From: Shigella phage A2
Strand: one strand, 5' to 3'
Sequence record: OP197928
Length of the DNA stretch: 64,000 nucleotides
Shown: piece by piece, positions 3,876 to 20,741 of the stretch
Layout: the number at the start of each line of letters is the position of its first letter
Numbering within the stretch: the first letter of the stretch is position 1
Translations under genes and position numbers: made by a program
Notes under the pieces: model-generated
What the model was told of the DNA's origin: nothing
Databases searched by the model: none
Seen by the model: only the letters and a program-made list of their open reading frames with translations

Positions 3876-3904
3876 TCAAAATGAAGAAAGGGGCCGAAGC
3901 CCCT
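3876..3904 (-). terminator. Hairpin terminator downstream of hoc
   Basis: GGGGC-CGAA-GCCCC hairpin followed on the minus strand by T-rich run. Confidence 0.6.
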
Positions 3905-3909
3905 TATGA

Positions 3910-5331
3910 TTATGGATAGGTATAGATGATACCAGTTTCTAAAGCAGTTTTATGAATGATGTATCCATTACGTGATTCTTGAACATCAACTTCTGGATAG
4001 TCTTTCATCATCTTCTGAAGCGTATAACGATGCAAGTAGTATTTACTATCTGGATCGTCAGTTTTCCAATCTTTACCTTCTTCGGTCATTTTTTGGATTT
4101 CATCCATAACCCACCAACCACACCAGATGTAAGCTGAAGTACGATGTGGAAGAGGATGAACATAAGGTAATTCACCTTCTGGCTCTGGAGCAACTTTATC
4201 AGTTACCTGAACTTGACCTTCCGCCGTAATAGTTTTGCTATCATAATCAGCAGCAGCAGTAACAGTTGCAGTAACTTCAATAGTTTGACTTCCAATAGAT
4301 GAGGTATCAACGGTATATACATTAGTTGACCCTTCTACAGGAGAAGAATCTTTCTTCCATGAATACGCAATTTGCGCTTCTTCTGGAGCATCAGTGACAT
4401 TAGCAGTAAATGTAGCCGAAGCATCTTGTTGAACGTTAATAGAAGGAGGAGTCAATGTAACCTGTGGATTCATTGTCTTCTTATTAACTGTTAATGATAC
4501 TTCATTCGAAGTAACTTCCTTTTCATTGTAATTTTCAGCAGTTACTTGGGCTACGCATTTAATTCTTTTTACTCCACTTGTAGTTGGAGTATAGCTAAAT
4601 GTAGAGTTAGTTTCTCCACCAACTTGTGAATCATCTACATACCACTGATACGTAGCAGATGCTCCATCAGGTTGAGAAGCTAAGGCAGCAGTAAATTGAA
4701 CTGGTGTTCCAATTACTCCAGCTGAAGGACTATCGGGAGTTACTGCCAAAGTAGTTGTCTGTGTCTTTTTATTAACAGTCAATGACACTTCATTAGAAGT
4801 AACTTCTTTTGCATCATAATCTGTCGCGGTTACTTGAGCCACACACTTGATTGTTTTAACTCCGCTTGTGTCAGGAGTGTAATTGAATGTAGCGCTAGTC
4901 GCTTCGCTCACAGGAGAACCGTCAACGTACCATTGATACGTAGCAGATGCGCCTGATGGCTGCGAAGCCAAAGCAGCGGTAAATTCAACAGCTGTTCCGA
5001 TTACTCCTTCCGGAGGACTATTAGGAGTTACGGCTAAGGTAGTCGTCTGTGTCTTATTTTGAACTGTGATAGTTGTACTAATTTCAGCTGTTTCGGGACT
5101 ACTATCGGCAACTTGATTTGTTGCAACTACTTTAATAGTCTTTTGACCGGCAGGTCCTTTTAATACATAACTAAAAGTTGCTTCAGCTCCATCTTGTGGA
5201 ACATCATCAACAGTCCAAGCATATGTAATAGGTCCATCTCCAGTTTGACCACTGGGCGTAGCAGTAAACTGCTGAGTCTGATCTATAACTCCAGTAGGTG
5301 TTTTAGGAGTTATATCAACTGTAAAAGCCAT
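3910..5331 (-). CDS. hoc: Hoc, highly immunogenic outer capsid protein, with an extra Ig-like domain
   Basis: 473 aa; repeated Ig-like modules (YxWxVD, IKCVAQVTA motifs) and C-terminal capsid-binding region; position between rnlB and inh. Confidence 0.85.
   Translation of the reverse strand: MAFTVDITPKTPTGVIDQTQQFTATPSGQTGDGPITYAWTVDDVPQDGAEATFSYVLKGPAGQKTIKVVATNQVADSSPETAEISTTITVQNKTQTTTLAVTPNSPPEGVIGTAVEFTAALASQPSGASATYQWYVDGSPVSEATSATFNYTPDTSGVKTIKCVAQVTATDYDAKEVTSNEVSLTVNKKTQTTTLAVTPDSPSAGVIGTPVQFTAALASQPDGASATYQWYVDDSQVGGETNSTFSYTPTTSGVKRIKCVAQVTAENYNEKEVTSNEVSLTVNKKTMNPQVTLTPPSINVQQDASATFTANVTDAPEEAQIAYSWKKDSSPVEGSTNVYTVDTSSIGSQTIEVTATVTAAADYDSKTITAEGQVQVTDKVAPEPEGELPYVHPLPHRTSAYIWCGWWVMDEIQKMTEEGKDWKTDDPDSKYYLHRYTLQKMMKDYPEVDVQESRNGYIIHKTALETGIIYTYP
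4480..5055 (-). repeat. Tandem duplication of a 288 bp (96 aa) Ig-like domain unit inside hoc
   Basis: aa 93-188 and 189-284 of Hoc are near-identical (KTQTTTLAVTP...EVSLTVNK twice); visible as two divergent direct DNA copies. Confidence 0.85.
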
Positions 5332-5340
5332 AAGTTATCC

Positions 5341-6021
5341 TTATTTTAATGTTACGAAAGAAGAATTGCGTGTTTCACGAATTAAAACTGATCCGTCACG
5401 GTTAATGTAATAAATTAAGCTAAATAATGTTTGGTGTGCAGAAGCATGCTCAAAACTAGTTGGGTGAGATTTCCAATCCGGAGTTTCAGCGATCCATTGA
5501 TAAATCCACCAAGGAACAGTACAGAATCCTGGATTTTTTCCAATCAACTGAAGATTCGGGCTAAAGTTTTCCGGAAGAGTAAATACAGACGGCTTTTCAG
5601 ATTCAATAATCTCAGCTACAGCCTGTTCGAATTTTTCTTCAACAAAAGGAGTATCTTCAATCAAAACATCGGTATTTTCAGGAATTTTATCCGTTTCTAC
5701 TACTTCAATTTTAATGTCAGATTTAACTGGAGAATCAATCAAAAGTGCTGCTTCTGGATTGACTTCTTCATCGTCATATTTTAATCCCTCTGCAGCATCA
5801 GCAGCATCAATTAAGTCTTTAATAGATAACCCATCAGTCTCTGGCATAGGTTCACTAGCGAGCTTCTGGAGGGCTTCTTCAATATCAACAACGATATTAT
5901 CAAAAGATTTATTCTTTTTGACCTTTATACCAAACTGTTCAGCATATTCAGCTAATTTAGCTTTAGCTTCTTTATTATCATCAAGAGCCTTCAGCTCTGC
6001 AATATAATCTTTATCTATCAT
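5341..6021 (-). CDS. inh: Inh, inhibitor of prohead protease gp21
   Basis: 226 aa; position between hoc and uvsW as in T4. Confidence 0.7.
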   Translation of the reverse strand: MIDKDYIAELKALDDNKEAKAKLAEYAEQFGIKVKKNKSFDNIVVDIEEALQKLASEPMPETDGLSIKDLIDAADAAEGLKYDDEEVNPEAALLIDSPVKSDIKIEVVETDKIPENTDVLIEDTPFVEEKFEQAVAEIIESEKPSVFTLPENFSPNLQLIGKNPGFCTVPWWIYQWIAETPDWKSHPTSFEHASAHQTLFSLIYYINRDGSVLIRETRNSSFVTLK

Positions 6022-6034
6022 AATATTTCCTCAG

Positions 6035-6042
6035 TATAAATA
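6035..6042 (+). promoter_or_regulatory. Late promoter (TATAAATA) upstream of uvsW
   Basis: Exact TATAAATA 30 nt upstream of uvsW ATG. Confidence 0.6.
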
Positions 6043-6071
6043 TAGATATATTTATTACATGGTATTTAGAC

Positions 6072-7583
6072 ATGACTGACATTAAAGTACATTTTTATGA
6101 TTTTAGTCACGTGAGAATTGATTGTGAAGAAAGTACATTTCATGAACTCCGTGATTTCTTTAGCTTTGAAGCTGATGGGTATCGTTTTAATCCGAAATAC
6201 AAATATGGCCACTGGGATGGACGAATCCGTCTTTTAGATTATAATCGTCTTCTTCCATTCGGCTTAGTCGGGCAAATTAAAAAGTTCTGTGATAACTTTG
6301 GCTATAAAGCCTGGATTGACCCACAAATTAACGAAAAAGAAGAATTATCAAGAAAAGATTTTGATGAATGGCTTTCTAAATTAGAAATCTATTCAGGAAA
6401 TAAAAGAATTGAACCACACTGGTATCAAAAAGATGCAGTGTTCGAAGGATTAGTCAATCGTCGTAGAATTCTTAATCTTCCAACATCCGCTGGTAAATCG
6501 TTAATTCAAGCTTTGCTTGCGCGATATTATTTGGAAAATTATGAAGGTAAAATTCTTATCATTGTTCCAACAACTGCTCTAACAACTCAGATGGCTGATG
6601 ACTTCGTTGACTATCGTTTATTCAGTCATGCAATGATAAAGAAAATTGGTGGCGGAGCATCAAAAGATGATAAATATAAAAATGATGCACCAGTCGTTGT
6701 TGGTACATGGCAAACTGTAGTAAAACAACCGAAAGAATGGTTCTCACAGTTTGGAATGATGATGAATGATGAATGCCATCTTGCTACAGGAAAAAGTATT
6801 TCATCTATCATATCAGGTTTAAATAACTGTATGTTTAAATTTGGTTTGTCTGGTTCATTACGTGATGGCAAAGCTAATATCATGCAGTATGTTGGAATGT
6901 TTGGTGAAATATTTAAGCCAGTAACGACCTCTAAATTAATGGAAGATGGACAAGTAACTGAGTTAAAAATTAATAGTATTTTTCTTCGCTATCCCGATGA
7001 GTTCACTACTAAATTAAAGGGAAAAACTTACCAAGAAGAAATAAAAATTATTACGGGGCTTAGTAAAAGAAATAAATGGATCGCTAAATTAGCTATTAAG
7101 CTTGCGCAAAAAGATGAAAACGCTTTTGTCATGTTTAAGCATGTATCACATGGTAAAGCTATTTTCGATTTAATTAAAAATGAATACGATAAAGTTTATT
7201 ACGTATCAGGGGAAGTTGATACCGAAACCCGCAATATAATGAAAACCTTAGCTGAAAACGGTAAAGGAATAATTATAGTAGCTAGTTATGGTGTATTTTC
7301 TACTGGTATTTCAGTTAAAAATCTGCATCACGTTGTTTTAGCACACGGTGTTAAATCTAAAATTATTGTATTGCAAACAATAGGTCGCGTATTACGTAAG
7401 CATGGTTCTAAAACAATCGCAACAGTCTGGGACCTCATCGATGATTGTGGTGTTAAGCCAAAATCTGCTAATACGAAAAAGAAATATGTTCATTTGAACT
7501 ATCTTTTAAAACACGGCATTGATCGTATTCAGCGCTACGCAGATGAAAAATTTAATTACGTAATGAAAACAGTTAATTTATAA
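6072..7583 (+). CDS. uvsW: UvsW, SF2 DNA helicase of recombination/repair
   Basis: 503 aa; Walker A (PTSAGKS) and DECH box (NDECHLAT). Confidence 0.9.
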   Translation: MTDIKVHFYDFSHVRIDCEESTFHELRDFFSFEADGYRFNPKYKYGHWDGRIRLLDYNRLLPFGLVGQIKKFCDNFGYKAWIDPQINEKEELSRKDFDEWLSKLEIYSGNKRIEPHWYQKDAVFEGLVNRRRILNLPTSAGKSLIQALLARYYLENYEGKILIIVPTTALTTQMADDFVDYRLFSHAMIKKIGGGASKDDKYKNDAPVVVGTWQTVVKQPKEWFSQFGMMMNDECHLATGKSISSIISGLNNCMFKFGLSGSLRDGKANIMQYVGMFGEIFKPVTTSKLMEDGQVTELKINSIFLRYPDEFTTKLKGKTYQEEIKIITGLSKRNKWIAKLAIKLAQKDENAFVMFKHVSHGKAIFDLIKNEYDKVYYVSGEVDTETRNIMKTLAENGKGIIIVASYGVFSTGISVKNLHHVVLAHGVKSKIIVLQTIGRVLRKHGSKTIATVWDLIDDCGVKPKSANTKKKYVHLNYLLKHGIDRIQRYADEKFNYVMKTVNL

Positions 7584-18647: not shown

Positions 18648-20741
18648 TTATCCTTGAACGAACTTGTAAGGCATGTTTGCAATATCTATGCAAGACGCAA
18701 TAATTCCAAGAGATGATTCTACTTTTTGTTTAACATTTGATGAAACAAATGATGCAAAGTCAACTCTGTCTTCTATTTCAATATCACCTGTCATTGTAAC
18801 TACTTCACCAGTTTCCATTAGACGGTCACCGTCATAAATTACTGATTCGGTGAGTTCTTCCGTAGTCATAACTTCAGCTTGAATGAGTTTTGTATTATTA
18901 GATGTTGTTCCGTCATTATTAGAAGCATCAGTTATTTTATTAACTTTGACCATCAATCCTCGTGGTAGAATAACTTCAGCTTCTGTTGCTATTCCGAGAC
19001 TTCCTGGATATACAACATTAACTTTATGAGCTCCATCAATTGCCCATCCTATTTGAACTTTAACGTATTCTGGATTTTCTTTATACGCTCTTATTTCGTT
19101 TGGATTAATAGTTATTCCTTCTTCATTTTTATCAACTGTTAATTCATTACGAGCTTCTGGTTCTAAAAGACCAATGCCAGCATGTGTAATTCCAAAACGT
19201 CCAAAAATGATAGGAGTTAAAGAAGTAGATACAAAATTTCTGAAATAGAACACTTTATTTTTAACTAGTGCTTCGTATATAGGAGCAGTCATACTTTGAG
19301 CACGATAAACTGTAATGCCTTCTGGTATACGGTCACCATTTTCAAAAGCTGAATCTAAGTTATTTATAGCAGATTCAATTTCTTTTTCACTCATTACATC
19401 ATATCGTTCTGGATTGTAGCGTCCTAAAAGAAGATTATTGATGTCAGTATATCCTGAACCGCAATACTCTCTAATGCCGCGCTTTTGTGATGGAGTATAT
19501 TTAGAACCATCACGGGCAATAGTAATATCAATCATTGGACCTGCACCAATTCCAGAAAAACTATAAATCATTCGTTTGAGGAATTTAGTTTTTGCTGCGT
19601 TCCAGGAATTTTTAGTTATTTCTTCCCAGACTTCATCTGGCTGCCCTTTACGAGTTTTATTATGTTTATCAAGCCAAGTATCTTTATATTCTTCAAAGAA
19701 TTTATTAATAGCTGCTGCATACTTCTCTAAACATTTTATTGAAGTAGTCGGTTCATTTTTAATCGCATTAAGAATTACATCTTTAATTTTTTCAGAAACT
19801 TCATTAACCTCACTTTTTGAAAAGAATTTATAGTCATAATGAAGTTCATCTGCGGTTCCTTCGGCAATAATTTTTGCTGCCTTAGTTTTAGAAGCTAATG
19901 AATTAATTCCAAGTTTCATTTCTTCTGCTTCGGGAATTAAAGGAGCGGTAGCAGGTTTATTGAAATTAGCTGCGGTAGATTCATATTTCTGGAATAATTC
20001 ACTTTCAAATCTAGAAGATTCCAATGACTGACTTTGTGCAATTGCTCTACGGGAAATTTTAACTTTAACGATTACAGCTTGGTCAGAACGTTTATCATTT
20101 TCTTGTGCAATAGATGCTGCAATTGCCTCATTTTTAGTTACTTGAGCTCCAGTATCTTTATTGATATAAACATCGCCGACTTTCGATTCAACTTTAGTAA
20201 AGAGCTCGGTGCTAATTTCCGGAACTCCTGGAATGTCTTCTAGTGATACATTTTTGCGATGTATAAGAATATATGCATACTTTTTATCATAATCCCAGAG
20301 TTCCTTAAGAAGGACGTATCTGCCACCTGAACGACTGCGGATAAGTCTATCAGCAATAACTTGAATTTGTCGAGCTTGACCAGCAGTTTTAGACTTAAGA
20401 ATACGAAGCATACAGGCATCAATTTTATACTGACGCATCGTCTGCATCGCAACAGTAAAAACTGAATTGATGTAATTAATTGGGCTTGGACCGAGACCTT
20501 TTAATTTAGCAATTGAACCTTTAGCAGTTAATGTAAAAGGAACAATATGCATCATTTTATCGCCCATCTTTAAATCGCGATTAGTATCACCTCCAGATGT
20601 ATAGGTACATAAACGAAAGCCTGGTTGTTCAATTGCGTCATCAACATGAACTGAAAAAATTTGTGGTATTTTCTTCTTTGGATTTAAGTTTGTAATCGGA
20701 AGAGTAGTATCTTCGTCAAATAATTCTGTAATGAGTTCCAT
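18648..20741 (-). CDS. Alt-family mono-ADP-ribosyltransferase, paralogue B (head-packaged)
   Basis: 697 aa from second Met; same MELITELFD N-terminus and R (YRAQ), S (STS), ExE (EAEVILPRG) motifs; which copy is the canonical alt orthologue cannot be decided without alignment. Confidence 0.85.
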   Translation of the reverse strand: MELITELFDEDTTLPITNLNPKKKIPQIFSVHVDDAIEQPGFRLCTYTSGGDTNRDLKMGDKMMHIVPFTLTAKGSIAKLKGLGPSPINYINSVFTVAMQTMRQYKIDACMLRILKSKTAGQARQIQVIADRLIRSRSGGRYVLLKELWDYDKKYAYILIHRKNVSLEDIPGVPEISTELFTKVESKVGDVYINKDTGAQVTKNEAIAASIAQENDKRSDQAVIVKVKISRRAIAQSQSLESSRFESELFQKYESTAANFNKPATAPLIPEAEEMKLGINSLASKTKAAKIIAEGTADELHYDYKFFSKSEVNEVSEKIKDVILNAIKNEPTTSIKCLEKYAAAINKFFEEYKDTWLDKHNKTRKGQPDEVWEEITKNSWNAAKTKFLKRMIYSFSGIGAGPMIDITIARDGSKYTPSQKRGIREYCGSGYTDINNLLLGRYNPERYDVMSEKEIESAINNLDSAFENGDRIPEGITVYRAQSMTAPIYEALVKNKVFYFRNFVSTSLTPIIFGRFGITHAGIGLLEPEARNELTVDKNEEGITINPNEIRAYKENPEYVKVQIGWAIDGAHKVNVVYPGSLGIATEAEVILPRGLMVKVNKITDASNNDGTTSNNTKLIQAEVMTTEELTESVIYDGDRLMETGEVVTMTGDIEIEDRVDFASFVSSNVKQKVESSLGIIASCIDIANMPYKFVQG

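Follow-up and report, generated by a model that had tools for sequence, protein, structure and literature searches.

The extra Ig-like domain of Hoc in Shigella phage A2 belongs to a common, old domain copy-number variant that is probably shuffled by recombination

Hoc is carried by the T4 capsid in 155 copies, each bound in the middle of one gp23 hexamer; it serves in surface display and in vaccine platforms, and the "adherence to mucus" model is built on it. The hoc gene of Shigella phage A2, which lies in the window analysed here (the whole stretch of 64,000 nucleotides from record OP197928), contains two adjacent units of 288 nt, and a preliminary description of this DNA read them as near-identical copies of one Ig-like domain, left by a recent tandem duplication. 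The locus thus raises the question whether the second unit is a novelty of A2 or part of something older and more general among the close relatives of T4.

The gene had been named Hoc from the sequence alone, and this name was confirmed: a phmmer search returned T4 Hoc (5vf3_Z, 8t1x) as the sole related sequence in the PDB, with E = 9e-219, and the neighbours are inh (5341-6021) on one side and 24.3/24.2/rnlB on the other, in the same order as in T4. The position of hoc between inh (hoc.1) and 24.3/24.2/rnlB was found to be conserved when the A2 ORFs were compared with the T4 annotation and with 15 further loci. An exact look-up showed that the identical protein has already been deposited as UVD36865.1, under the name "capsid whisker protein" of Shigella phage A2, and the closest DNA matches to the gene are Tequatrovirus phages, of which AdolfPortmann is the first, with 98.6% identity. 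The features of the locus are collected in Table 1.

Table 1. Features of the hoc locus of Shigella phage A2 (positions in the window; residues of A2 Hoc)
Feature	Residues	Coordinates	Strand	Evidence
hoc coding sequence	473 plus stop	3910..5331	-	ORF list; phmmer to T4 Hoc 5vf3_Z, E = 9e-219; exact protein look-up
Ig-like domain 1, outermost of the fibre	1-92	5056..5331	-	weak unit-HMM match at residues 1-91; AlphaFold beta-sandwich, pLDDT ~90; dN/dS 0.41, highest of the protein
Repeat unit 1, type A, domain-2 paralogue	93-188	4768..5055	-	repeat searches; 99% nt identity to the single domain 2 of L036 and to AdolfPortmann unit 1
Repeat unit 2, type B, corresponds to most of T4 domain 2	189-284	4480..4767	-	nt identity 98% with the lone RB7 domain 2 and 91% with T4 domain 2
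Ig-like domain 3, includes the (GCT)3 run	285-379	4195..4479	-	Pfam Ig_3 at residues 289-353; AlphaFold strands
C-terminal capsid-binding domain and stop	380-473	3910..4194	-	nearly identical to T4 Hoc 283-376; dN/dS 0.02
Intrinsic-terminator-like hairpin AAGGGGCTTCGGCCCCTT, then T-rich tail		3888..3905	-	directly past the hoc stop codon
inh-uvsW intergenic region without segE		6022..6071		ORFs compared with T4; ~0.7 kb upstream of hoc

Tandem Repeats Finder detected at 4474-5055 an array with a period of 288 and 2.0 copies (77% matches, score 689), and a second repeat search of the A2 sequence gave two 288-nt copies with 76% identity. The best in-frame register sets residues 93-188 against residues 189-284, and these units lie exactly at the DNA and protein positions first proposed for the repeat. 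In what follows the unit 1 sequence of A2 defines type A and that of unit 2 type B. The two share 76 of 96 amino acids (79.2%) and 75.7% of nucleotides; the differences, 70 in 288 positions, fall on codon positions 1, 2 and 3 in the numbers 11, 12 and 47, and the longest identical run in register is 17 nt. Such similarity greatly exceeds chance; the units are homologous and in frame, but they are not the near-identical copies that had been described.

Domain prediction recovered both units as Ig/PKD-like domains. Pfam PKD matches them in two stretches (40.2 bits, cut-off 23.5), and Ig_3 matches the domain that follows them (residues 289-353; 30.1 bits, cut-off 30). An AlphaFold model, built from an alignment of 30 sequences, predicts four beta-sandwich domains with pLDDT ~90 at residues 1-91, 93-188, 189-284 and 285-379, the confidence being lower for the C-terminal domain, which is invariant in an alignment of 30 Hoc proteins and whose last 90 residues are almost identical to those of T4. 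The predicted strand pattern is the same in the two units, and 16 of the 20 residues that differ between A and B lie outside predicted strands. Foldseek retrieved as best PDB matches structures with four Ig or extender domains in a row, namely Dscam1 Ig1-4, ICAM-5 D1-D4 and the ice-adhesin extender 4p99. When aligned with T4 Hoc (376 aa; PDB 5vf3, 8t1x), A2 residues 185-473 lie on T4 residues 89-376, with 185-284 on 89-188, so that unit 2 is the one aligned to T4 domain 2. The two proteins share the gene position and nearly identical domains 1, 3 and capsid-binding, and they differ in that T4 has one domain-2 unit, which is a block-wise mix of the two A2 types. The T4 protein gives a single strong unit match, in agreement with the earlier proposal that A2 Hoc has one Ig-like domain more.

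The dN/dS ratio in seven four-Ig phages decreases steadily along the fibre, from 0.41 in domain 1 at the tip through 0.24 in unit 1, 0.18 in unit 2 and 0.12 in domain 3 to 0.02 in the C-terminal domain that anchors it. Between the two units of A2 itself dS is ~1.5, which is saturated, and dN is 0.12; the resulting dN/dS of 0.08 (Nei-Gojobori) shows that purifying selection acts on both copies. According to the predicted structure and the dN/dS ratio, both units encode intact and selectively constrained Ig/PKD-like beta-sandwiches, and for this reason the Hoc fibre of A2 should be one domain longer than that of T4.

We then evaluated how widespread this arrangement is. Matches to hoc were found in 684 phage records, from which 60 rows were taken in even steps down the ranking; four-Ig genes were scored by the span of the match in the record, since BLAST coverage is unusable here (joined pieces bring three-Ig matches to 100% too). 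Among the 49 full-length matches in this sample, 17 span ~1419 nt (four Ig) and 31 span ~1131 nt (three Ig), one being ambiguous. The four-Ig Hoc, at ~35% of Tequatrovirus records, is a common variant: the A2 form is longer than that of T4, as the preliminary description had supposed, but it is shared with about a third of the records. RB27, AR1, PST and slur02 are among the phages that possess it, and the Hoc of RB30 has 472 aa. The 472-aa proteins (RB30, RB27, slur02, AdolfPortmann and many other Tequatrovirus) have the same four-Ig layout, A followed by B, in genes that are 93-98.6% identical in nucleotides to A2 hoc, and A2 Hoc has one alanine more than they have.

Copy number was also counted on the best 120 cluster representatives together with A2 and T4 (n = 122, a part of all records). 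One strong domain-2 unit match is present in 82 proteins of ~376 aa, two in 31 proteins of ~472 aa and three in nine proteins of ~568 aa. The longest class, represented by the 568-570-aa Hoc of Escherichia phages UGKSEcP1 and UGKSEcP2, has the genus, the locus and the cassette logic of A2 but three domain-2 units instead of two, and it adds a third unit type, which is found elsewhere alone or as second unit. Copy number follows the tree of the remaining Hoc protein hardly at all, the 31 two-unit proteins being scattered over it. Its distribution requires 28 Fitch changes, where shuffled labels give 36 on average and 29 at the lowest; the count is only indicative because it comes from a neighbour-joining tree of a recombining gene. 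Outside domain 2, the nearest relatives of A2 Hoc are three-Ig proteins, with 99.3% identity.

The genes with a single copy carry type A, type B or block-wise mosaics of the two, and T4 itself is a mosaic. The single unit of P0093 (376-aa Hoc, locus L036) is 100% identical to type A in amino acids and 99% in nucleotides, and those of P0105 (L037) and RB7 are 97-98% identical to type B in nucleotides. The T4 gene (L001, 5188-6318), read at 70 diagnostic A/B sites, has in its domain 2 type A at nt 1-45, type B at 47-219, type A again at 228-261 and type B at 270-288; blocks were scored with the A2 units as references, a choice that favours A2 looking "pure". The block switches in T4 are 5 against 24.5 expected, and none of 10,000 shuffles was as low; the single units of G8 and ph0021 are likewise blocky, again with 0 of 10,000 shuffles as low. 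Simpler patterns exist as well, with one A-to-B switch near the 5' end in L003 and a switch to B at the last diagnostic sites, at the very 3' end, in L036. Unequal crossover within an A|B pair would be expected to produce one switch from A to B, and switches from B to A would need gene conversion or recombination between alleles.

From these data we consider it highly probable that A2 hoc is a common four-Ig allele (domain 1, A, B, domain 3, capsid-binding domain) of an old domain-copy-number polymorphism that is shuffled by recombination and probably sets fibre length. In the gene pool of Tequatrovirus the 96-aa domain-2 unit would behave as a cassette, present in one, two or three copies (Hoc of 376, 472 or 568 aa), and, as expected of a recombining cassette, one and the same unit type is present in genes that differ in copy number, and mosaics made of blocks occur as well. 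Three processes would move the cassettes and mix them, namely homologous recombination when phages infect the same cell, unequal crossover, and gene conversion between units, and this mixing would give single-unit genes of type A, of type B or of A/B blocks. The borders of the units are their best conserved part, with 83-85% identity against 67% in the core, and they could be the crossover sites. Homologous recombination, which is very active when T4-type phages infect together, would keep the polymorphism circulating; the tandem copies probably persist because, with 17 nt as the longest shared run, they are too diverged to be collapsed quickly by recombination of the T4 type.

A different origin of the pair has to be considered, namely that A and B diverged as single-domain-2 alleles in different lineages and that unequal recombination at the unit borders, in a mixed infection, later placed them head to tail, after which the four-Ig allele spread. 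The existence of single-unit genes that are nearly pure A (L036, IMGVR_d, HX01) or nearly pure B (RB7, L037) is in favour of this history, as are the conserved borders and the movement of hoc between genera, HX01 having a hoc like that of Tequatrovirus between flanks of no more than 70% identity. However, the single-unit genes are equally well explained as collapsed A|B pairs, and the switches in L036 and L003 fit unequal crossover within a pair. The use of other genera as outgroup does not separate the two scenarios either, since both A and B match out-of-genus domains at 32-42% identity only. We regard the joining of alleles as rather unlikely, though it keeps some weight. As far as the sequences go, an ancestor with one unit or with two, and a pair formed by in-place duplication or by joined alleles, would both fit, recombination having probably scrambled the signal.

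The age of the pair can be evaluated directly. Compared with the units at the same position in other four-Ig phages, unit 1 of A2 is 85-99% and unit 2 87-99% identical in nucleotides, whereas units 1 and 2 within one gene are 75-79% identical in every gene examined. In seven four-Ig genes paralogue dS averages 1.14, against 0.28-0.30 between counterpart units of different phages. The flanks (inh; 24.3-rnlB) are 94-99.9% identical across Tequatrovirus loci, with the one exception of the downstream flank of L036 (88%), the differences between flanking genes within the genus being put at 2-6%, and since they are far less diverged than A is from B, the pair must be much older than the divergence of the Tequatrovirus genomes. 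Phage A2 is not where the A/B pair arose, and the pair is old. The reading with which the locus was first presented, a recent in-place duplication of one domain-2 unit within the lineage of A2, agrees with two neighbouring in-frame units of exactly 288 nt, and with a copy number that changes often relative to the rest of Hoc. It is nevertheless very improbable, because dS is ~1.5 between the A2 copies against ~0.3 between counterparts in different phages, because each copy has a 97-99% identical counterpart elsewhere, single-unit genes included, and because about a third of the genus has the four-Ig arrangement, the Hoc of RB30, an old GenBank entry, also being 472 aa long. The A2 allele is ordinary, widespread and already deposited, and it records no fresh evolutionary event. 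That the second copy is a sequencing or assembly artefact, with one copy truly present, has nothing in its favour beyond the general risk posed by tandem repeats and is excluded for practical purposes, because the copies are too different for mis-collapse or mis-expansion (reads map uniquely to each of them, given the number of differing positions), the A2 ORF stays open, and matching two-unit genes occur in many independently sequenced genomes and in metagenome assemblies.

Concerning the consequences for the fibre, a length of 180 Å has been reported for T4 Hoc (PMC10385173), and by scaling from this value for four domains the four-Ig fibre would be ~45 Å longer than that of T4. The added domain could also offer one more variable surface, for binding of glycans or mucin or for antigenic variation. 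The functional idea of the preliminary description, that domain number could change reach or avidity, is plausible. Natural Hoc proteins with three, four and five Ig domains, made from interchangeable domain-2 units in close relatives of T4, constitute a ready-made isogenic series, with which the effects of fibre length and domain content on mucin binding, immunogenicity and display capacity could be tested.

A possible contributor to the exchange lies on the inh side of the gene. In A2 the spacer between inh and uvsW (6072-7583) is only 50 nt and segE is absent there; segE sits at this spot in T4, AdolfPortmann, slur02, PST, AR1, ELT1 and RB7. In phages without segE, such as RB30, the inh-uvsW region is the reported target of the SegE homing endonuclease, and homing at this spacer co-converts the flanking DNA (PMC2330249). 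The spacer beside A2 hoc is therefore a recombination hot spot, and because of the co-conversion of flanks the SegE site may add to the exchange of hoc. No link between the presence of segE and the number of units was found in 20 loci, as phages with segE and phages without it each include one-unit and two-unit genes.

Variation of the number of Ig domains among Hoc homologues is already published: in homologues a conserved C-terminal anchor carries between 1 and 10 Ig-like domains (Fokine et al. 2023, PMC10385173), and the Hoc of phage PNJ-9 is without one domain (PMC11853027). These comparisons concern distant phages, whereas the case of A2 lies within one genus. In the literature searched, whose scope did not extend to Sathaliyawala 2010 and Fokine 2011, we found no description of a domain-2 polymorphism of one, two and three copies within Tequatrovirus, or of a mosaic domain 2 in T4. 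The behaviour of domain 2 as a cassette at the population level is the only part of this work that may be new. In its widest form, this idea would make domain 2 of Tequatrovirus Hoc an undescribed cassette system with at least three diverged unit types in one to three tandem copies, continually reshuffled, possibly with the contribution of co-conversion at the segE site, and selected for varied fibre length and for an exposed antigenic or glycan-binding surface, T4 Hoc being a recombinant of two paralogue types; we propose it tentatively, as a possibility that falls a little short of an even chance.

Outside the genus, a scan of IMG/VR for hoc loci gave few Tequatrovirus loci and useful ones from other genera. 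Other Tevenvirinae contigs encode Hoc proteins of 179, 279-282, 367-377, 471-472 and 1107 aa. In two non-Tequatrovirus Tevenvirinae of IMG/VR (L006, L007) a Hoc of 471-472 aa has as extra domain a copy of domain 3, the copies of L007 being 78% identical in amino acids, and in a third (L012) a Hoc of 282 aa is without domain 2; gain and loss of whole Ig domains are therefore recurrent and independent. In HX01 (L034, classed as Mosigvirus), hoc is ~87% identical to that of A2, with 90% identity between its domain 2 and type A, whereas inh and the downstream genes reach only ~70%, which suggests a transfer of hoc between genera.

Some minor observations concern the gene itself. The ORF list contains no plus-strand ORF of at least 60 aa over 4480-5055, and no TATAAATA motif (internal late promoter) is present inside hoc, so that both ideas, of a plus-strand feature hidden in the repeat and of a late promoter within it, were rejected; the sole terminator-like match within the repeat is a weak one on the plus strand, at 5030-5046. 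The hairpin past the stop codon is strong and GC-rich, and phage G8 has an annotated terminator at the equivalent place. A codon comparison with AdolfPortmann showed that at 4249-4257 (minus strand, Ala359-361) A2 has (GCT)3 and the relatives with 472 aa have (GCT)2, and A2 Hoc has 473 aa because of this one-codon slip, which adds one Ala.

Finally, three records deserve attention. In T2 (L033, NC_054931) and in Yersinia phage PST (L026, KF208315), with hoc starting at 1801, the hoc frame is disrupted. The T2 annotation gives two fragments; that of PST uses an internal start, since the full frame ends after 16 codons. These broken frames may be real pseudogenes or sequencing errors. The record MG010123.1 ("Staphylococcus phage SAJK-IND", 32 kb) contains at 18685-20103 a T4-type four-Ig hoc that is 93.5% identical to that of A2, and it is probably mislabelled or contaminated.
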